Part shown: positions 1,785 to 39,818 of the stretch, piece after piece
Layout: each line of letters begins with the position of its first letter
Position numbering within the stretch: position 1 is the first letter of the stretch
Assembly (NCBI GenBank): GCA_043811105.1
Contig: JBDRNK010000087.1
Span: 1 to 43,676, forward strand
DNA length: 43,676 nt
From: Candidatus Uhrbacteria bacterium
Lineage (GTDB): Bacteria > Patescibacteriota > Patescibacteriia > UBA9934 > CAZDDW01
Direction: 5' to 3'
Notes under the pieces: generated by a model
Database searches by the model: none
Seen by the model: only the letters and a program-made list of their open reading frames with translations
What the model was told of the DNA's origin: nothing
Made by a program: the position numbers and the translations under genes

Positions 1785-2510
1785 GCGCCCTGCTAAAAGT
1801 CCCTTAACAATTCAGTTAGAGTAAAGACATCAAAAATTAAAATAAGATCGGCATTTGGATCCCTTGTTTCGAATTTTTCGTCCGAAACCAAGGGGCTGTA
1901 ATCGGAATGTCGAAAAACACGCTTTTGTAGCTTTAAAATAAAAGTGTGGGAAAATCTCAATAAGAGTATATCGGTGGATGCCTTGACATAAGAAGACGAT
2001 GAAGGACGTAGCAGCCTGCGATAAGCCGCGGTGAGGTGGCAAGCAACCTTTGACCCGCGGATCTCCGAATGGGGAAACCCCCTCTCTTGAAGAGAGAGGA
2101 AGCTCAGCCTTTAAGGCGAGCTGGAAGACCCGGCGAACTGAAACATCTTAGTAGCTGGAGGAAAATAAAATAATAATCATTCCCTGAGTAGTGGCGAGCG
2201 AAAGGGGAGGAGTCTAAACCCAAATGACTGAGAAATTAGTCCGGTTCGCCGGATTGATTTCAGAAGGCTCTGGAGCCATATGTTTTTTCGGTGTTGCAAG
2301 AAATTAGTGCCTGTTGCCAGACCAACGGGGCGAAGTAAAAAAAGATAATTCTTAGTTGAATGAGCTGGAAAGCTCAGCCAGAGACGGTGATAGCCCGGTA
2401 AGCGAAAAGAATTGACTCTTCGTGGCTAGTTCTCTTAAGTAGGGCGGGACTCGTGAAATCCCGTTTGAAGCCAGGTCGACTATGACCTAAGACTAAATAC
2501 TTCTTATGAT

Positions 2511-2547
<37 letters not shown>

Positions 2548-3303
2548 CATCCCGTTTAGGGAGGTGAAATAGTATCTGAAACCATATACTTACAAAGAGT
2601 CGGAGCCCCGCAAGGGGTGACGGCGTGCCTATTGAAGAATGAGCCAACGAGTTTGTTCTATGTGGCTGGCATAATCTCCTTTGGAGAGCATGCAGAGTGA
2701 AAGCGAGGGTTAATAGCCCGTTTGTGCTTCGCTTTCGTCCAACGTTTAGCTGGGTCGCAAGACTTAGATATTCGCTAGCGGGACGGAAGCGTAGCATTTG
2801 TCGCATGGACAAGACCCGAAGCCGAGTGATCTAACCATGAGCAGGTTGAAGTTCGTCGAAAGACGGATGGAGGACCGAACCCGTTAGTCGTGCAACACTA
2901 TGGGATGACTTGTGGTTAGCGCAGAAATTGTAATCGAACTCGGCAATAGCTGGTTCTCCTCGAAATAGCTTTTGGGCTAGCCTCGGATGTTGACCTCAGG
3001 GGGTAGAGCACTGGATGAGGGCGGGTCGCAAGATACCGTCTTCAATCAAACTCCGAATACCTGGGGGTAGAGTCCGGGAGTCAGACTATGGGCGCTAAGG
3101 TTCATCAGTCGAAAGGGAAACAGCCCTGATCACAATCTAAGGTCCCTAAATCTATGCTAAGTGTCAAAGGTGGTGTTGCGACTACGACAGTTAGGAGGTT
3201 GGCTTAGAAGCAGCCATCCTTTAAAGATAGCGTAATAGCTCACTAATCAAGTTGTTTCGCGCCGAAAATTTATCGGGGCTAAGCATAGTACCGAAGATGT
3301 GAA

Positions 3304-3404
3304 CTGTCTAGATTTTTGTTTTTTATCGAACGAACCCTAAATTTTGCTAGGGGTTCGTGAAACGTAGTATCTATGTGATAGATAGAAGTCAAAAATCTAG
3401 ACAG
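3304..3404 (+). other. ~100-nt expansion segment within 23S (branched hairpin)
   Basis: ctgtctagattttt (3304-3317) pairs with aaaaatctagacag (3391-3404). It sits between the conserved ccgaag and ggtagaggagcgttc, where E. coli has a short helix. Confidence 0.6.
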
Positions 3405-4137
3405 TGGTAGAGGAGCGTTCCCTTCAGCGTTGAAGTCGTGTCGTGAGGCACGGTGAAGCGGAGGGAAGAGAGAATGTTGGCATGAGTAGCAAAAAGGCGG
3501 GTAAAAACCCCGCCCATCGAAAACCTAAGGTTTCCTGGGCAACGAAAATCGACCCAGGGTTAGTCGATCCTAAGGCGCATCCCGTGTAGTGCGGGAGCTA
3601 GCCGATGGATGAGCCGGTTAATATTCCGGCACTACTGTTATTTTCCGATGGGGAGACGCAGTTCTAAAGTTTAAGCGCGCTATGGTATGTGCGTTTGCGG
3701 TCTCAAGAAACGGCTTAGGTAAATCCGGGCCACCAGTTTCAAGGGATTGAGAAGAGATGAAGCCGCAAGGCGGAATCAATTTAAGCGGCAGAACTGACTA
3801 GAAAAACCTCTAGGGCTAAAGTAACAGTAATCGTACCGTAAACCGACACAGGTAGGTGAGGCGAGAAGCCTCAGATGTACGAGAGAAACTTCGTTAAGGA
3901 ACTCGGCAAAACAGCGGCCGTAATTTAGAGATAAGGCCTGCCCTCGCAAGAGGGCCGCAGCTAAAGAGCCCAAGGGACTGTTTATCAAAAACATAGCTCT
4001 CTGCTAACTCGCAAGAGGATGTATAGAGGGTGATGCCTGGCCAGTGTCCGAACGTTAAGAGGAGAGGTTAGCCGCAAGGCGAAGCTTTGAATCGAAGCGC
4101 GGATGAACGCCGGCGATAACTATAATCGTCCTAAGGT

Positions 4138-5009
4138 TTTGCAATTTATAATTAGATTGCAAAAGGACTGGGACGATTATAAGATAAAACAGTTTAACAT
4201 TAATATTAGTAAGTCATTAAAAAATTCGCTGCCTAGCCATAGCGAAAACTATGGTGTGTCACAATATTTGACTATATGCTGGAAACTCTGTGGGTAAAAC
4301 CCTGTAGTATCGAGCGCTACTTAATGGTATAATGACAAGGTGTAATTATTCCTTGTCTATATGTTAGTAAGTAATAATGCGTCTCGCGCAGACAATCAGC
4401 AGGAAAGACTAATGATGATCGGTTGGATAGTCGGTTTTGTAGATGGTGAAGGATGTTTTTCAATTAATTTTGTAAAACAGGCCGATAAAAAGGAAAAAAC
4501 CAGAGTTCGTAAAGGATACAAAATTGGCTTCCAAATTATTCATAGATTCGCGGTAGTGCAAAGTGAAAAGAGTATTGATACTTTAAAGAAATTGCATAAA
4601 TTTTTTGGAGTCGGCAACGTATATATTAATCGTCGCCATGACAATCATAAAGAAAATTTATACAGGTACTCAGTATCTAAAAAGGAAGATTTAATAAGAG
4701 TAATTATTCCTTTTTTCCAAAAGAATATTCTAAAAACCTCAAAGAAAAAAGATTTTTCTTTATTCGTTGAATGTATAAAATTAATAGACAAAGGAAAACA
4801 TTTAACCGGAGAAGGAGCTATAAAAATTGCTCAACTTTGCGAAAAAATGAATCAACAAAAACCGAAAACAGAAATCATTAGAATCCTCAGAAACCAAACG
4901 TCAAACTCCGTCATTCGCCATTTAGCGGATCGGAGAAGATAGAGTTCTATCTGCATAGCGATATGCAGCCACGAAAGTGGGTTTAGTAAATAACTAAATA
5001 AAATGAATT
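4138..5009 (+). mobile_element. group-I-like intron/insertion in 23S domain IV, carrying a homing endonuclease
   Basis: It splits the conserved cgtcctaaggt|agcgaaattcc, which is the I-CeuI recognition sequence region. The 3' boundary base is T rather than the canonical G, so the exact splice site is uncertain. Confidence 0.7.
4361..4942 (+). CDS. LAGLIDADG homing endonuclease (single-motif type)
   Basis: 193-aa ORF inside the 23S insertion, with the motif GWIVGFVDGEGCFSI. Confidence 0.85.
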   Translation: MLVSNNASRADNQQERLMMIGWIVGFVDGEGCFSINFVKQADKKEKTRVRKGYKIGFQIIHRFAVVQSEKSIDTLKKLHKFFGVGNVYINRRHDNHKENLYRYSVSKKEDLIRVIIPFFQKNILKTSKKKDFSLFVECIKLIDKGKHLTGEGAIKIAQLCEKMNQQKPKTEIIRILRNQTSNSVIRHLADRRR

Positions 5010-5540
5010 AGCGAAATTCCTTGTCAGGTAAGTTCTGACCTGCACGAATGGCTTAACCACTTGGGCACTGTCTCAACGAAGTACTCGGTGAAATTGCAAT
5101 ACGAGTAAAGATGCTCGTTAACCACAGTTGGACGAAAAGACCCCGTGAAGCTTTACTACAACTTGATATTGAATTAGGGATATGCTTGTTCAGAATAGGT
5201 GGGAGCCTTCGGGCGCCAGTGAGATACCACCCTTGTTTATTTTTAATTCTCACCTCGCAATAGCGGGGGACAGTGTCTGGCGGGTAGTTTGTCTGGGGCG
5301 GATGCCTCCCAAAAGGTAACGGAGGCGTTTACCAAGGTCGGCTATCCCGGAATGGAAACCCGGGAGATAGTGTAAAGGCAAAAGCCGGCTTTACTGCGAG
5401 ACCTACAAGTCAAGCAGTCGCGAAAGCGGAACTTAGTGATCCGACCATTCAATATAGGATGGTGGAAGCTCATCGGATAAAAGCTACTCCGGGGATAACA
5501 GGCTAGTCAGGTCCAAGAGTCCACATCGACGACCTGGTTC

Positions 5541-5573
<33 letters not shown>

Positions 5574-5583
5574 GTGGAGAAGC

Positions 5584-5651
<68 letters not shown>

Positions 5652-6088
5652 AAAGATAATCGACGTATCTGATGTTATAAAACTTTTCGTCTGCACAATC
5701 CAGTTTTAAACTGGACGACCGTGCTGTCATTAAATTTGGCTAAATGCTGGAAAGTCTGAGTTGGTTTGTTTTGGAGAATAAACCAAAAGTATCTCACACT
5801 ACTCGTTTTAATATATTTGTTAAAGCAGTGATAATGTGTTGAGTGCAGATAATCAGCAGGAAAGACCCTGAGCGAAGCTCGCAAGAGCTGAGTCAAAGGG
5901 AATCCTCAGAGACTATACGCCAAACCCCCCTTCGCCAACCTCCGTCGCCCTTCGGGCTATGGAGGTCAGGAGGTTTCGGGGGGAAGATATAGTCCGAACT
6001 GTATGGCGACATACAGAGTCAGAGTGAAATCTCTGGCCGCCACAAGCAAGTCAGATTCAGGATGTGGTTTTGCAAAGTAACAGAATTG
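5652..6088 (+). mobile_element. ORF-less group-I-like intron in 23S at the I-CreI-type site
   Basis: It splits gtcgtgagacagt|tcggtc. The 5' exon ends in T and the intron ends in G. It shares core blocks with the first insertion (tgctggaaa.tctg, gcaga.aatcagcaggaaagac, gaatcctcaga). Confidence 0.7.
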
Positions 6089-6132
6089 TCGGTCTCCTAT
6101 CCGCCACGGGCGTCGAAAGTTGCGGGAACCTA

Positions 6133-6173
<41 letters not shown>

Positions 6174-6397
6174 ACCGGTTGTTCTGCCAAGGGCATTGCC
6201 GGGTAGCTACGTTCGGTTTGGATAAGCGCTGAAAGCATATAAGCGCGAAGCCGATCCCAAGATTAACTTTCATTATGAGATCCCTCCGAGATGAGGAGGT
6301 TGATAGGCTCTAGGTGTAAGCGTGGTAACACGTTCAGCCGAGGAGTACTAATAGATCCAGACTCTACAATTACTTAATAAGAATGTTTCGTTCTAGA

Positions 6398-6490
6398 GAA
6401 AGTTTCAAGTTACAAGTTTCAGGTTTCAAGTATGGAGAATAGTAAATATCTTCCTAACTTGATACTTGTTACTTGATACTTGATACTTTC
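6398..6490 (+). repeat. long hairpin built from tcaagt / acttga short tandem repeats in the 23S-5S spacer
   Basis: The 5' arm gaaagtttcaagttacaagtttcaggtttcaagta is complementary to the 3' arm aacttgatacttgttacttgatacttgatactttc. Confidence 0.7.
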
Positions 6491-6503
6491 CAAAAAACCC
6501 CCA

Positions 6504-6618
6504 ATGTTCTGGTGGTTCTTCCAGGAGGGCCACACCCGTTCCCATCTCGAACACGGCAGTTAAGCCTCCTAGGGCCGATGGTAGTCCTTCGGGCGAGAGT
6601 AGGTAGCCGCCAGAACAT
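6504..6618 (+). rRNA. rrf: 5S rRNA
   Basis: cccgttcccatctcgaacacggcagttaagcc...gatggtag...gagagtaggt. Terminal helix atgttctgg/ccagaacat, extended by aaaaaccccc/gggggttttt. Confidence 0.9.
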
Positions 6619-10883: not shown

Positions 10884-10921
10884 GGTTTCATTTGTAGGGA
10901 CCGACAGGCGTAAGCCTGTCA
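10867..10921 (+). repeat. REP-like repeats R2 (gtagcggaaccctttagggtt) and R1 (gtagggaccgacaggcgtaagcctgtca)
   Basis: Both have a GTAG head followed by a palindrome. R2 supplies the last codons and the TAG stop of the upstream gene. R1 recurs at 12214, 13660(-), 24212(-) and 39738(-). Confidence 0.75.
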
Positions 10922-10962
10922 TTAATTGACAAGCTGATGCTTTTCGATCCCATTAATTTTTT

Positions 10963-12216
10963 ATGAGACTAATTACTGATTGGCATATTCATTCCGGATA
11001 TTCACGAGCTTGTTCCAAAGAACTCACACTTCCGAATATAGCCAAGGCTTGCGAGCGCAAGGGGATTAATATCGTAGCCGCACCGGACTGGACTCACCCA
11101 GCTGTGTTTTCTGATATTAAAGAATTGTTGGTTGAAGATCGCCCGGGAATGTATCGCTTGAAAGATGGGTCAAGTAAGACTTGGTTTATGTTATCAACCG
11201 AAGTTGCTCAGATTTACAAGAAAGGAGATCGTTGTCGACGGATTCATAACAATATTATGTCTCCTTCGATTGAGGTGTCTGAGAAGATAAACACCGAGTT
11301 AGAACGTCGCGAGTTTAATTTAAAATCTGACGGACGCCCGATTCTTGGAATCGATTCTGAAGAGTTATACAAGATTGTAAAAGATATTGACGAGCGTGTA
11401 ATCATGATCCCGGCTCATGCCTGGACCCCGTGGTACGCTATCTTTGGGTCCAAATCCGGATTCGATAGTATCGAAGAGTGTTTTGGCGAAATGACTCAGT
11501 ATATCTATGCAGTCGAAACTGGACTATCGAGCGATCCACCAATGAACTGGCATTTATCTGGCTTGGACAAGGTGGTCTTGGTGTCTAACTCAGACGCTCA
11601 TTCATTACCAAAGCTTGGTCGCGAAGCTAATGTGTTTGAAGTTGGGGATCCAAGTTATGATGAGTTTGTTCGGATCATGAAAGAACAGGATCACGAAAGT
11701 TTCTTACATACAATCGAGTTTTATCCTGAAGAAGGTATGTATCACGCTGACGGTTGTCGTAACTGTGATTTTTCTTGTGAGCCTAATCAGACACGTAAGT
11801 TGGATGGCAGATGTCCGACCTGTAAGAAACCAATGACGATTGGTGTTTGGAATCGGGTGATCGAAATCGCAGATCGTAAGTCAGATCAACTGCCAACAGA
11901 CCGAATTCCTTACAAATCAATCGTGCCGTTAGATGTAATCATGGCCGAGGTCAATGGAGTTAAGTCTACCAGTTCGAAGAAGGTGCAAGAGATGTATCAA
12001 AAGGCAACAGACGAACTTGGTACTGAATTTGATATCCTACTCGATACTCCGATTTCGGAAATAAAAAAGTTCGACGAAAGACTCGCCGAAGCTATCAAGC
12101 GCATGAGATCCGGAAACATCCACATCAAACCTGGCTACGACGGCGTCTACGGCGAAGTTTCAATTTGGGCGGATAAGGAGCGGCCAAAGGGGTCCGAACA
12201 AAAAATTCTGTTGTAG
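10963..12216 (+). CDS. PHP-domain protein with a Zn-ribbon (EndoQ-like / COG1379-type)
   Basis: N-terminal DWHIHSGYSRACS (PHP), SDAHS, and CRNCDF...CPTCKK cysteine pairs. 417 aa. Confidence 0.6.
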   Translation: MRLITDWHIHSGYSRACSKELTLPNIAKACERKGINIVAAPDWTHPAVFSDIKELLVEDRPGMYRLKDGSSKTWFMLSTEVAQIYKKGDRCRRIHNNIMSPSIEVSEKINTELERREFNLKSDGRPILGIDSEELYKIVKDIDERVIMIPAHAWTPWYAIFGSKSGFDSIEECFGEMTQYIYAVETGLSSDPPMNWHLSGLDKVVLVSNSDAHSLPKLGREANVFEVGDPSYDEFVRIMKEQDHESFLHTIEFYPEEGMYHADGCRNCDFSCEPNQTRKLDGRCPTCKKPMTIGVWNRVIEIADRKSDQLPTDRIPYKSIVPLDVIMAEVNGVKSTSSKKVQEMYQKATDELGTEFDILLDTPISEIKKFDERLAEAIKRMRSGNIHIKPGYDGVYGEVSIWADKERPKGSEQKILL

Positions 12217-12241
12217 GGACCGACAGGCGTAAGCCTGTCAA
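12214..12241 (+). repeat. REP-like repeat R1
   Basis: gtagggaccgacaggcgtaagcctgtca. Its TAG is the stop codon of the PHP gene. Confidence 0.75.
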
Positions 12242-12269: not shown

Positions 12270-12631
12270 CTATTTAGATTGTTCTGGTTCTTTTAGAGAT
12301 CGTATCCATCCACCTAACATCCGGCCGATCTCATCTATTTGTTGTTGCAAGTTAAGATATCTTTTGTTGTTTATTTTCTTACAGTCTTTCATTAATCGAA
12401 TAAATACTCGGAACATGTTAAGTTGTGTACTTGTTTTTTCAAGCACAGGAAGTTTTTCTTGCTTGTATAGTTCACTGGCCTGTAACAAGCCTTCCAGAAT
12501 GTTCAGATTACAATTTTCGACCTTTTGCCAAAGTGTGTATCGATCTTGTTTTGGTATGGTCAGGCGAAAAGAATAAATGTTTTGGTATAATTCGTAGGTT
12601 TTTTAAAGATAGGAATTTTAAATTCATCCAT
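12270..12631 (-). pseudogene. avd: Avd-like four-helix-bundle protein (DGR accessory), frameshifted
   Basis: The C-terminal 72 aa (...QQQIDEIGRMLGGWIRSLK) continue upstream as KTYELYQNIYSFRLTIPKQDRYTLWQKVENCNLNILEGL. The ATG-containing N-terminus MDEFKIPIFKK is in another frame. The frame switch falls at a 6-nt homopolymer (12599-12604). Confidence 0.6.
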
Positions 12632-12641
12632 AATACTGTTT

Positions 12642-13623
12642 ATGAAGGTTTATAAGAATGTTTTTAATGCAATAACCAAGCCGGAATCCCTTTTCCTGGC
12701 TTGGCAACGGTTTCGTAAGGGTAAAAGTAAACGCAAAGACGTAGCTCGGTTTGAGTGGAGTCTGGAGCAGAATATTTTTGAGTTACACCAAGATTTGGTC
12801 AGTGAAACATATCGACATGGCTCATACAGCGACTTTTTTATTGCTGATCCTAAATTACGCCACATCCACAAATCCATGGTTTGTGATCGGGTGGTTCATC
12901 ATGCTGTGTATCAGGTCTTGTATCCTATGTTTGATCAATCGTTCATCTTCGACAGCTATTCCTGTCGTCTAGGTAAAGGCACTCATGCTTCGGTGAATCG
13001 ACTCAAGGTCTTTGTTCGAAAAGTCAGCAGGAATTATACTGCTCCATGTTTTGCTCTTAAGTTTGACATTAAGAAGTTTTTTGATTCTGTAGATCATGAA
13101 ACTTTGTTGGATATCTTGAACCAAAAAATCTTCTGTACCAAAACAAATTGTTTGTTGGTGGAGATCGTGGAAAGTTTTTCAAAATTTCAGACCGTCGGGG
13201 GGGGGGTCGTTACTTGAAAAAACCAGACCTTGCGGTTTACCGATCGGGAATCTGACTTCTCAGTTGTTTGCCAATGTTTACATGAATGCATTTGATCATT
13301 TTGTTAAAGAAGAGTTGAGAATAAAGTATTATCTGCGATATACAGATGATGCCTTAATTATACACAAAGACCCAAGATATCTTAGTTTATTAGTTCCGTT
13401 TATTCAGGATTGGCTTTGGCAGAATCGGCGACTCTTACTGCATCCGAACAAGGTATCAATTTGTAAGCTTTCTCAAGGTATTGACTGGCTCGGGTACGTG
13501 GTTTTGCCACATTATCGAGTGTTGAGAACAAAGACGAAAAGAAGGATGTAAAGACAGTTGAATGAAGAAAACCTACCATCATATTTGGGAGTTCTGTCTC
13601 ATGCTAATACTTATAAATTATAA
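12642..13623 (+). pseudogene. DGR-type reverse transcriptase, disrupted by a frameshift and an in-frame stop
   Basis: Motifs CDRVVHHA, DSYSCRLGKGTH, FDIKKFFDSVDH, GLPIGNLTSQLFANVY (the DGR-type I/LGxxxSQ motif) and RYTDD. The frame breaks at G10 (13197-13206). An in-frame TAA at 13549-13551 is followed by ...SYLGVLSHANTYKL. Confidence 0.7.
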
Positions 13624-13659
13624 GAAAGTTTATTGAATGATTTGTGGTTTAAAACAAAA

Positions 13660-13686
13660 TGACAAGCTTACGCTTGTCGATCCCAC
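13660..13686 (-). repeat. REP-like repeat R1 (GTGG-headed variant)
   Basis: The reverse complement reads gtgggatcgacaagcgtaagcttgtca. Confidence 0.55.
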
Positions 13687-13729: not shown

Positions 13730-13864
13730 CTATTTCTTTCGGCGCTTTGCTACTTTCTTTTTTGGAGCAGCTTTCTTCTTAGCTACTTTTCGCTTTGCCG
13801 GCTTCTTAGCAACTTTCTTCTTAGTTACTTTCCTTTTTGCCGGTTTCTTTTTCTTTGCAGGCAT
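13730..13864 (-). CDS. 44-aa lysine-rich basic protein (histone-H1/Hc1-like composition)
   Basis: MPAKKKKPAKRKVTKKKVAKKPAKRKVAKKKAAPKKKVAKRRKK, read from the minus strand. Below the ORF-track size cutoff. A terminator follows directly. Confidence 0.5.
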   Translation of the reverse strand: MPAKKKKPAKRKVTKKKVAKKPAKRKVAKKKAAPKKKVAKRRKK

Positions 13865-14012: not shown

Positions 14013-15275
14013 CTATTCAACAATATCGACCGGAGTATTTACATCAGCAAAGTTATATATCCATTCCGCATTCTCGGTCGAAGCATTAACACAACCATGA
14101 CTCATGCGTTCACCAAAATTATTATGCCACGGAGCAGAGTGAATGTAATAATGATTTTTAAACATCAGATTCCAGGGGATTAAACCCATAGAATAATTAT
14201 TAGGATTATCAGCCCCGTAACTCCAAGTGTAATCAACCCATGGTTTTTTGGCTAAAACTGAGTGATTTCCCAGCGGTGTTGGGAACCACCAAGTACCCGA
14301 GCTAATAAAGAAAGACGTGTTCAGTAAACCATTTTCATAGGCAAATAAACGCTGGTCAGAAATGTCAACAATAATATGTTTGTTATTATCCGGACCTTCA
14401 AGATGACCGGCTGGTACTGTGATGATTTCTTGACTACTATCACTATCAAGATCAGCAACAACAAAATTATTTTCGTTTTCATTGATAAAAGAAACAGTTA
14501 ATTCGTTAACAACTTTATCCACAGTTGTGATTTCAGAAACGATGTAAAAAACTTTCTCTTTGTTGTTTTTAGTTAAATGTTCTGTAATTAATTTATTTAT
14601 TCCGTTTTCATTTTCAATTGAAATTTTAACACCAGCTGTGTCATTGGCATCAAAAGAAAAGAATTCATAATCTAACAACCAATTGTTATTTCGATATTCC
14701 CAAACCCGAATGTGCGGTCCACCGGTTGGTCCGGGTGCAGTAATGATTTCGGACACACCGTCATTGTCCACATCACCACAAGCAATATTAACACCACCGC
14801 GAAAATCCTCAGCGTAGGCAAAAAAGCCATTTGTAAATTTTACATTTCCATAACTATCAAAAACGCGAACTTGCGGCCCGCCTCCATACTGTGTTCCAGT
14901 TATCACTTCGGCAGGACCATCACCGTCAAGATCACAAGCAGCCACAGTAATTCCACGACCAAAGTCAGGGGCATAGGCCAAGAAGCCAAGAATTTCAGAC
15001 CCATCTTGTCGCAGATAACGAACTCGCGGTTCATTTCCAAAACCATTACCAACGATCAATTCTGGTGTTCCATCATTTCCAAGATCAGCCGCAGCAATTG
15101 TTGCCCCGCCAGTATCATTGGTCAGCAAGATTCCAGATGTTCGAATCACTTCGCCACTGTTCGAATAAGTGGTGATCGGCAGTGAACGAACCTGAACAGC
15201 CAGTGAAGCCTGGACATAAAAAAACAGACCAGAAGTAATACAGATTGTTAAAATGAAAGTCTTCATATTAAGCAT
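14013..15275 (-). CDS. secreted FG-GAP/VCBS-repeat protein with a C-terminal L,D-transpeptidase (YkuD) domain
   Basis: Signal-like N-terminus. Repeated DLDGDG/DVDNDG...E motifs. C-terminal HSAPWHNNFGERMSHGCVNAS catalytic motif. Confidence 0.75.
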   Translation of the reverse strand: MLNMKTFILTICITSGLFFYVQASLAVQVRSLPITTYSNSGEVIRTSGILLTNDTGGATIAAADLGNDGTPELIVGNGFGNEPRVRYLRQDGSEILGFLAYAPDFGRGITVAACDLDGDGPAEVITGTQYGGGPQVRVFDSYGNVKFTNGFFAYAEDFRGGVNIACGDVDNDGVSEIITAPGPTGGPHIRVWEYRNNNWLLDYEFFSFDANDTAGVKISIENENGINKLITEHLTKNNKEKVFYIVSEITTVDKVVNELTVSFINENENNFVVADLDSDSSQEIITVPAGHLEGPDNNKHIIVDISDQRLFAYENGLLNTSFFISSGTWWFPTPLGNHSVLAKKPWVDYTWSYGADNPNNYSMGLIPWNLMFKNHYYIHSAPWHNNFGERMSHGCVNASTENAEWIYNFADVNTPVDIVE

Positions 15276-24137: not shown

Positions 24138-24239
24138 GCGGGGTCATCCCCCTACGCTCCTATCGGAGCTTCGGAGGACAGGAGTGACCCCGCTTATATT
24201 TTGTCTGACCATGACAAGCTTACGCTTGTCGGTCCCTAC
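24138..24239. repeat. REP-like cluster: R3 nested in a hairpin, plus R1
   Basis: gcggggtca[ccccctacgctcctatcggagcttcggaggacagg]tgaccccgc at 24138-24193. R1 (minus orientation) at 24212-24239 abuts the stop of the adjacent gene. Confidence 0.65.
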
Positions 24240-39115: not shown

Positions 39116-39613
39116 TTATCGCAGTTCCAATTGAATATGTTGAGCTATCTGTTGTAATTGCGATTCAAGACGTTCGTACTTGGATTGAAGAGCCACAAGT
39201 TCAGTTTCAAGTTTGTTGTGTAGATTGATAAAGCCATCGATTTGAGTGACTATTTCAGATTTTGCACCAGAAATTATTTGTTCAACATCGGCTTTGACTA
39301 CTGCGTTATCTTTGACAAATTCAACTGTTTCTTGCACCCCAGCCATATCCTCTCTGAGAGAACTAACGTCTGTTTTTACTCCAGACATATCTTCTTTGAG
39401 AGAACCAACGTCTGTTTTAAGAGAACCAACATCTGTTTTTACCCCAGCCATATCCTCTTTAAGGGAGCTGACATCTGTTTTAAGAGAACCAACATCTGTT
39501 CGAACTGAACCAACCGCCACTTCCAATCCTTTGATTGCTTCCCGGTTTGAGGTGGTGGTATCTAGAATTTTTTCAAGTAGTGATTGTTGATCCATACAAA
39601 AGTAATTTAACAT
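39116..39613 (-). CDS. coiled-coil protein with an internal 21-nt tandem repeat expansion (paralog of 35937-36287)
   Basis: 165 aa. Heptad-like repeats DVGSLKT/DVSSLKE/DMAGVKT. Same N- and C-termini as the paralog. Confidence 0.65.
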   Translation of the reverse strand: MLNYFCMDQQSLLEKILDTTTSNREAIKGLEVAVGSVRTDVGSLKTDVSSLKEDMAGVKTDVGSLKTDVGSLKEDMSGVKTDVSSLREDMAGVQETVEFVKDNAVVKADVEQIISGAKSEIVTQIDGFINLHNKLETELVALQSKYERLESQLQQIAQHIQLELR

Positions 39614-39636: not shown

Positions 39637-39818
39637 CTACCAGAGATTAGTATTTCTTACCCAATTTACCTGGCCGCCGAAGCTTTAGCGAAGGCGGGTT
39701 GGGGTTGTGATGGGAACGACAAACTTTAGTTTGTCAAATGACAGACTAACGTCTGTCAGTCCCTACAAGACGGGAATAAATTCCCTGAGAAGTATTAAGA
39801 AATATAATTTCTGGTGGG
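39637..39818 (+). repeat. island element I, copy 4, interrupted by host REP-like repeats
   Basis: Same ends as copy 1. About 100 nt are inserted (39668-39767), containing cctggccgccgaagctttagcgaaggcgggttgggg and tgacagactaacgtctgtcagtccctac. Confidence 0.75.

Follow-up and report, generated by a model that had tools for sequence, protein, structure and literature searches.

The element most readily compared with the locus described here is the diversity-generating retroelement (DGR) of Bordetella phage BPP-1, which comprises the reverse transcriptase (RT) bRT with its accessory protein Avd, a template repeat (TR) and a variable repeat (VR) in the gene mtd. Simple-sequence-repeat contingency loci are the other point of comparison; poly-G tracts switch contingency genes in Campylobacter, Neisseria, Haemophilus and Helicobacter. 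Phage contingency loci have also been described (bioRxiv 10.1101/2025.10.21.683753). We analysed contig JBDRNK010000087.1 of a Candidatus Uhrbacteria bacterium (assembly GCA_043811105.1), a stretch of 43,676 nucleotides (nt) called the window below, in which an avd gene and an RT gene lie head to head and both are broken. The locus is of the kind reported for the candidate phyla radiation (CPR), or Patescibacteria, by Wu et al. 2018 (PMC5758913), where DGRs are chromosomal, lie among housekeeping genes and have targets without known domains. We consider it probable that the window holds the recently stopped avd/RT core of a Patescibacteria-type DGR, and that a repeat tract in the RT gene of its relatives serves as a reversible on/off switch.

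When compared with BPP-1, the window RT belongs to the same RT clade and is accompanied by Avd, and its relatives possess TR/VR pairs whose mismatches fall at adenines, with the VR at the 3' end of the target gene. Unlike in BPP-1, avd is opposite in strand to the RT gene with the two start codons 0-30 nt apart, and the TR lies beyond avd rather than between avd and the RT gene. The RT also carries an extra loop of about 16 amino acids (aa) just before RT motif 3 (GLPIGNLTSQ), which appears as an insertion in the alignment with Bordetella bRT and which holds the simple repeat. Finally, the window copy is without TR, VR and target, and its genes are broken.

On their sequences, the window Avd and RT are a DGR-type pair, as the first-pass annotation of this DNA had proposed. 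Among solved structures in the PDB, the best match of the repaired RT was Bordetella bRT (8ub7, E 3.9e-41), while group II intron and retron-type RT chains matched with E 9e-14 or weaker. The RT scored 120 bits against the group II model TIGR04416 (cutoff 300) and 51 bits against the retron model (cutoff 235), so that a grouping with either of these classes was not found. The NCBIfam scan of the RT returned no DGR-RT family among its matches, the top one being a group II intron maturase far under its cutoff, and this result was left out of the classification. GLPIGNLTSQ fits the DGR-clade signature [I/L/V]GxxxSQ, and the other RT motifs named in the first-pass annotation (CDRVVHHA, DSYSCRLGKGTH and RYTDD) were all found as well. 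The nearest RT homologues all lie within loci with avd and TR/VR, and homologues number in the thousands, from Patescibacteria/CPR genomes and metagenomes (Parcubacteria, Uhrbacteria, Saccharimonadia and similar groups). A scan of the viral_contigs collection with the RT motif pattern gave 0 matches, so the family is not a phage clade of that collection. The divergent gene was rightly taken for an Avd-like protein: after repair it scores 67 bits against Pfam bAvd (cutoff 40) and 87.2 bits against NCBIfam NF033474 DivGenRetAVD, above the cutoff of 80, and the Avd proteins of relatives cover 12602-12294 of the window in a single frame by tblastn.

The head-to-head arrangement was thought unusual at first reading, but it is not. 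In the three closest intact relatives (59-68% aa identity), avd and the RT gene are head to head, with starts 0-30 nt apart. Past the 3' end of avd comes first the TR, which ends 5-40 nt from the stop codon of that gene, and then a domain-less gene of 240-300 aa with the VR as its 3' end; the TR/VR mismatches are nearly all at TR adenines. Among 80 further loci from species-representative genomes, 76 carry a minus-strand avd immediately 5' of the RT gene, and therefore, together with all the close relatives, the layout is the family norm. An A-biased TR/VR pair was found in 60 of the 66 loci with enough flank; the distance from the TR end to the RT start has a median of 408 nt in these, which places the TR just past avd.

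The feature that sets the family apart is an uninterrupted repeat in the RT loop. In the relatives L001, L002 and L004, three glycine codons are written GGG GGG GGG, within an in-frame G9 or G10, despite an aa identity of only about 60%, and the same conservation at the DNA level is seen in about 15 further lineages. For a sample independent of the tract, metagenome contigs were scanned with a DNA pattern for TSQLFAN...AFDH, which lies downstream of it, and 53 loci were obtained. A G7-G11 tract, replaced by C9 in one locus (L129), occurs in 14 of these, 15-50 nt before GLPIGNLTSQ. No other G/C run of at least 8 nt is present in the 165 kb of the loci in this tract sample, and GGG makes up 29% of the glycine codons elsewhere in their RTs. 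One lineage, L117, has its tract interrupted as GGC GGC GGC GGG, in frame. In a sister group (L012, L014, L138 and L139) the same loop is occupied by (GA)10-12, read as RERERE. Altogether, an uninterrupted repeat (G7-G11, once C9, or (GA)10-12) exists at this one loop in more than 20 lineages. Since poly-G, poly-C and (GA)n share the loop, the selected property is probably the instability of the repeat and not a particular sequence. A role of poly-G as a sequence-specific RNA or DNA element was also considered and is less likely for the RT-internal site, where poly-C (L129) and (GA)n share the loop.

The tract is also where these genes break. In the motif-drawn sample, 9 of the 13 scorable tract-bearing RTs are out of frame at the tract (off) and 4 are in frame (on), compared with 8 of 35 tract-less RTs that are broken anywhere (Fisher p = 0.0055). 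In the off RTs, tblastn yields two segments that meet at the tract, and overlap of the two open frames is confined to its surroundings. Wherever an off locus has enough flank, its Avd is full-length and uninterrupted and its downstream RT half is open. The TR/VR mismatches of off loci are adenine-biased as well: 26 of 27 in L085, 18/19 in L110, 17/19 in L115, 24/26 in L122, 10/13 in L134, 30/32 in L140, 17/18 in L138 and 15/17 in L139. One complete 1.0-Mb genome carries two DGRs, one on (L001) and the other off (L140). Off alleles thus occur within otherwise intact, recently active-looking DGRs.

Protein databases point the same way. About 89 database open reading frames (ORFs) of 180-235 aa end a few residues past ...VGGG or ...RERERE, many of them on contigs of 30-630 kb, against 5 that read through; this count came from a search with the N-terminal half of the RT, which is biased to short proteins, and we use it qualitatively. 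The known full-length relatives P0002-P0006 are absent from that listing, and the DNA-motif sample was relied on instead. Among representatives at 50% identity, about 10 end at GGG or RERE compared with one repeat-bearing read-through, to which we give little weight, as the search, again with the N-terminal half, was too coarse and the motif patterns fail on distant sequences.

Close strains differ in tract length as assembled. L141 and L142 (G8, off) and L093 (G10, on) were aligned over 5,377 nt, in which one single-nucleotide polymorphism and the tract are the differences; between L120 (G8) and L134 (G10) the tract is the only difference in 972 nt. Within each pair, allele and dataset coincide, G8 coming from Ga0187827 (also ERZ27232244) and G10 from PVBE01; a dataset effect is possible, although it would itself imply mixed reads. 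A second frame change, common to L120 and L134, falls about 60-160 nt ahead of the tract, in the variable insert that separates it from RT motif 2a; there the frame ...SSQ* passes to the frame ...PRNDEIKTINLLERIISSFS, and no obvious repeat is seen. In L128 the tract is G7 and in frame, and the RT shifts frame downstream (about residues 259-271), away from obvious repeats. Overall, the tract is conserved at the DNA level, it is the specific place at which frames break, and its assembled length differs among close strains.

We now turn to the window copy, whose features are collected in Table 1. Its RT loses the frame at the G10 tract, as stated in the first-pass annotation, and removal of one G restores the reading ...TVGGGSLLEKTRPCGLPIGNLTSQ..., identical in pattern to that of intact homologues (VGGGSLFE in P0002). 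The G10 is the sole G/C run of at least 8 nt in the window. GGG accounts for 12% of glycine codons in the window genes, and the other Gly-Gly-Gly stretches there are written with mixed codons, so the G run is not a chance feature. The in-frame TAA that had been pointed out at 13549 was confirmed, and a second one was added to it. Reassignment of TAA was rejected, as this codon terminates 9 of the 26 window genes. Both are nonsense mutations, given that the orthologue L094 has leucine and glutamine at these sites. In the family alignment A1, which includes the window RT, every invariant column is retained in it.

Table 1. Features of the avd-RT module and its borders in the window (coordinates in nt of the whole stretch).
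Feature	Position	Strand	Remarks
Upstream neighbour gene	10963..12216	+	417 aa, no Pfam match; located where relatives hold target, VR and TR
REP-like hairpin (GGGACCGACAGGCGTAAGCCTGTCA), left bracket of module	12216..12240	+	overlaps stop codon of upstream gene (end 12216)
avd pseudogene (DGR accessory four-helix-bundle protein)	12270..12631	-	frame lost after codon 11; profile matches once repaired
A6 run (plus-strand T6)	12599..12604		site of avd frame break; A7 would be in frame
avd-RT start-codon spacer	12632..12641		10 nt; 0-30 nt in relatives
DGR-type RT pseudogene	12642..13662	+	frame 1 up to 13205, frame 2 from 13207; ancestral stop TGA 13660-13662
G10 tract	13197..13206	+	+1 relative to in-frame G9; orthologue L094 has G9 with same flanks
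Nonsense codon TAA	13549..13551	+	Leu in L094; L/F/M in homologues (KRRM[L/F/M])
Second nonsense codon TAA	13621..13623	+	Gln in L094; Lys in P0018
REP-like hairpin, inverted copy, right bracket	13660..13684	-	overlaps ancestral RT stop; also 3' of RT in L094

The avd gene runs on the minus strand from an ATG at 12631 to its stop at 12270, and its break does lie at the 6-nt A/T run to which it had been assigned. With one A added (A7), the translation becomes MDEFKIPIFKK-TYELYQ..., which fits the homologue motif F[QK]K[ST]Y. Past the break, the first usable start is a TTG that gives just 72 aa. The A run was considered as a conserved switch in its own right and rejected: relatives have A5-A6 or no run at all, and none of them is broken there.

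The first-pass annotation had also found no TR/VR pair or target nearby, and this holds across the whole window, where no A-biased TR/VR pair was detected in any strand combination. The same scan recovered the pairs in relatives. When it was relaxed to 40-nt windows, matches were confined to the A-rich low-complexity segment 13935-13985 and were rejected as false. Also, the targets (by tblastn) and TR regions of the three closest relatives have no homologue in the window. Only 53 nt, mostly a hairpin resembling a repetitive extragenic palindrome (REP), lie between the end of avd and the unrelated upstream gene, which we used as synteny anchor and as control for the ratio of nonsynonymous to synonymous substitution rates (dN/dS). 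The REP-like hairpin GGGACCGACAGGCGTAAGCCTGTCA belongs to a family of six copies in the window (10897-10921, 10927-10951, 12216-12240, 13660-13684, 24212-24236 and 39739-39763), all at gene ends and with compensatory changes in their stems, and an inverted pair of them flanks the avd-RT module.

The age of the damage was judged from L094, an orthologous locus on a 1.5-kb metagenome contig. It contains the 3' end of the upstream gene of the window (81% nt identity) and, immediately after it, an RT segment that starts at about codon 95 and extends to the same TGA stop and REP hairpin (76.8% identity). The sole gap in the alignment of the RT region is the tract, which is G9 and in frame in L094 and G10 in the window. 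A separate net deletion of 694 nt has removed avd and roughly the first 95 RT codons from L094. Between the two copies, the dN/dS of the RT is 0.051 and that of the neighbour gene 0.044, with synonymous sites near saturation (proportion of synonymous differences 0.65-0.71). It follows that the RT, like its housekeeping-like neighbour, was strongly constrained by purifying selection for almost all the time since the split, and the window copy and L094 must have been inactivated recently and independently; the reading as an old relic was rejected on the same value (dN/dS 0.05). Another decayed relative, L089 (FLOH01000056.1, about 1-700), has the VR-bearing 3' end of its target (...WEWVKNSYDSRDCLLVGRRADGGLASVGARWRGDRYDAIGFRALV) almost abutting an RT that begins near residue 100, with the TR, avd and the RT 5' end deleted.

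From these observations the following course of events may be proposed. In working relatives the order is the target gene with its 3' VR, the TR, avd on the opposite strand and the RT gene. By analogy with the Bordetella paradigm, the TR RNA would be copied by RT and Avd with errors at adenines, and the complementary DNA would replace the VR. Slipped-strand mispairing at the repeat would make the RT gene alternate between encoding the complete enzyme and encoding an N-terminal fragment; the out-of-frame product, about 190-230 aa long, would be without motifs 3-7, including the catalytic YxDD (RYTDD in the window). Such toggling would gate hypermutation stochastically in intact relatives. On the way to the window copy, the target, VR and TR would have been lost, avd would have changed from A7 to A6, and the RT would have acquired two 3' nonsense substitutions in addition to an extra G.

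This changes how the G10 of the window has to be read. It is the common '+1 off' state and not evidence of decay, and it is by the other lesions, i.e. the Avd frameshift and the two nonsense codons, that the copy is dead. As encoded, it is predicted to be unable to perform mutagenic retrohoming. The proposal of a decayed DGR thus stands for the window copy, on the Avd frameshift, the two nonsense codons and the missing TR, VR and target, and does not stand insofar as it drew on the G10. Sequencing error, decay and phase variation had all been offered for the homopolymer breaks; at the G10 site, which is out of frame in most relatives that are otherwise intact, phase variation fits best. The resemblance to contingency loci lies in an intragenic G8-G11 or dinucleotide repeat kept against synonymous interruption, in on and off frames among otherwise intact alleles and apparently in length differences between near-identical strains. 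Unlike in the known loci, the controlled gene encodes a targeted hypermutation enzyme instead of a surface or restriction-modification gene, the hosts are Patescibacteria, and the tract lengths are read here from assembled sequences alone.

For the family as a whole, a tract of another kind has also to be considered. In distant CPR DGR loci (L005-L084), a G8-G12 tract fills most of the gap of about 30 nt between avd and the RT gene in about 40 of 80, for example at 2962-2972 in L028, 1863-1873 in L075 and 2425-2436 in L048. The tract precedes the avd start by about 5 nt (as poly-C, at times translated PPP) and the RT ATG by 13-25 nt, and it adjoins a conserved palindrome in the N-terminal codons of avd (CTTTTGCCA...TGGCAAAAG). 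This intergenic tract could be a repeat switch in a promoter or 5' untranslated region, or an element of the DGR RNA. On balance, we lean towards the general view that selection keeps a hypermutable repeat in Patescibacteria DGRs (poly-G, poly-C or (GA)n in one permissive RT loop, an intergenic G8-G12 in the distant clade), that this repeat switches hypermutation, and that it is set to off in most cells and populations.

Several explanations compete with this account. It is possible, though we think it unlikely, that the window holds a working DGR in its off phase, with reversible breaks in the RT and Avd, tolerated C-terminal stops, and a TR and target elsewhere in the genome. The RT dN/dS of 0.05 against L094, the invariant columns kept in A1 (which includes the window RT) and a G10 that is the commonest off state among intact relatives are all what such an element would show, and trans use is conceivable given that the 1.0-Mb genome of a relative has two DGRs (L001 and L140). 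However, two independent nonsense substitutions delete the conserved C-terminal SYLGxLxH block of the RT, in which S313, Y314 and G316 are invariant and H320 nearly so. The break in Avd does sit at an A run, but such runs are neither conserved nor broken in any relative. The TR abuts avd in 60 of 66 relatives, which does not favour a distant one, and the L094 locus has decayed further, through deletion.

We are equally doubtful that the off lengths are the normal form, from which full-length RT would be made by programmed recoding, i.e. RNA polymerase slippage or ribosomal +1/-1 frameshifting, so as to keep the RT low. The tract would then serve gene expression instead of switching the gene at the level of DNA. 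A tRNA-Gly can re-pair perfectly in any frame on a G run. Off alleles predominate, 8 of the 12 poly-G off alleles are of the +1 type, and the downstream RT halves stay open. Nevertheless, in-frame alleles exist in intact elements too (L001, L002, L004 and L093), -1, +2 and -2 states are also seen, and near-identical strains appear to differ in the tract length of their DNA. The (GA)n form would need a 2-nt shift, which is rare for ribosomes, and the window copy, with its further lesions, would not be rescued in any case. That the genes are intact and the frame breaks are mere homopolymer errors of sequencing or assembly is very improbable: two of the four lesions are at homopolymers and poly-G is troublesome on some platforms, but the 75 homopolymers of 6-8 nt within the 26 kb of intact ORFs on the same contig show no frame break, the other two lesions are base substitutions, the tract is off in many independent assemblies and projects, including as (GA)12, which is not error-prone, and errors do not explain the absence of TR, VR and target.

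Other points weigh against the account of a stopped core and a switch in its relatives. The contig spans 43.7 kb, and a TR/VR pair may be present elsewhere in the genome. The very low dN/dS means that the RT was needed until recently, and both nonsense codons fall within the final 12% of its length, so that a truncated enzyme may still be active. Each of the four lesions, as read from the assembly, may reflect an assembly error or a heterogeneous population. The strain-pair difference (G8 in Ga0187827/ERZ27232244, G10 in PVBE01) may have a technical cause, and the lineage of L120 and L134, with its second frame change, may itself be a pseudogene. The ratio of off to on of about 2:1 is the expectation from random drift of the tract length, and the protein-database count favours short ORFs. 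The reversibility of the switch and its benefit to fitness are what we infer.

Around the module, the window holds further features of its own. Downstream, 13730-13864 (minus strand), just 3' of the RT, encodes a 44-aa ORF made nearly entirely of Lys, Ala, Pro and Arg, with a composition like that of histone H1. The next neighbour, 14013-15275 (minus strand), is an FG-GAP repeat protein with a C-terminal L,D-transpeptidase (YkuD) and without a VR-like repeat. The 23S rRNA gene (1950-6615 region) is extended to 4.4 kb by insertions, among them a low-GC insert with a LAGLIDADG endonuclease ORF (4361-4942) and a group I intron (5697-6016); the 5S rRNA gene is at 6508-6615, and the 16S rRNA gene is absent from the contig. 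The segment 31900-41000 is GC-rich (0.5-0.6), dense in repeats and resembles a cassette array. It contains a 58-nt hairpin element in six copies spaced by 0.9-2.4 kb, several duplicated segments of 60-270 nt with identities of 78-100%, and small ORFs without Pfam matches. Within it, a 165-aa coiled-coil ORF at 39116-39613 (minus strand) is built on 21-nt (7-aa) tandem repeats at 39315-39514.

In the literature, the one mention of a frame shift seen in Wu et al. 2018 (PMC5758913), in a figure legend, concerns a VR and not an RT; the words frameshift, truncated and homopolymer do not occur in Roux et al. 2021. No repeat tract in a DGR RT or between avd and the RT was found in the searchable literature, the CPR survey of Paul et al. 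2017 being outside its coverage, and the literature search returned no report of phase variation in Patescibacteria/CPR. A repeat-based switch on a DGR RT was thus not found in the searchable literature, and an earlier mention is possible. The mechanisms that regulate mutagenic retrohoming are said to "await discovery" in the Discussion of a recent study (bioRxiv 10.1101/2024.11.15.621889).

The window locus taken alone is an ordinary dead DGR, but it exposes a feature that runs through its family. A "broken RT" should not be equated with a "decayed DGR", and many such elements will be overlooked or mis-scored by DGR finders or gene callers if these demand an intact RT ORF. If the switch is true, one mutational device gates another, and this would explain what keeps DGR activity in check in Patescibacteria. 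The activity of DGRs in these organisms would then be stochastic and heritable, and it would be readable from the tract length in metagenomic reads.

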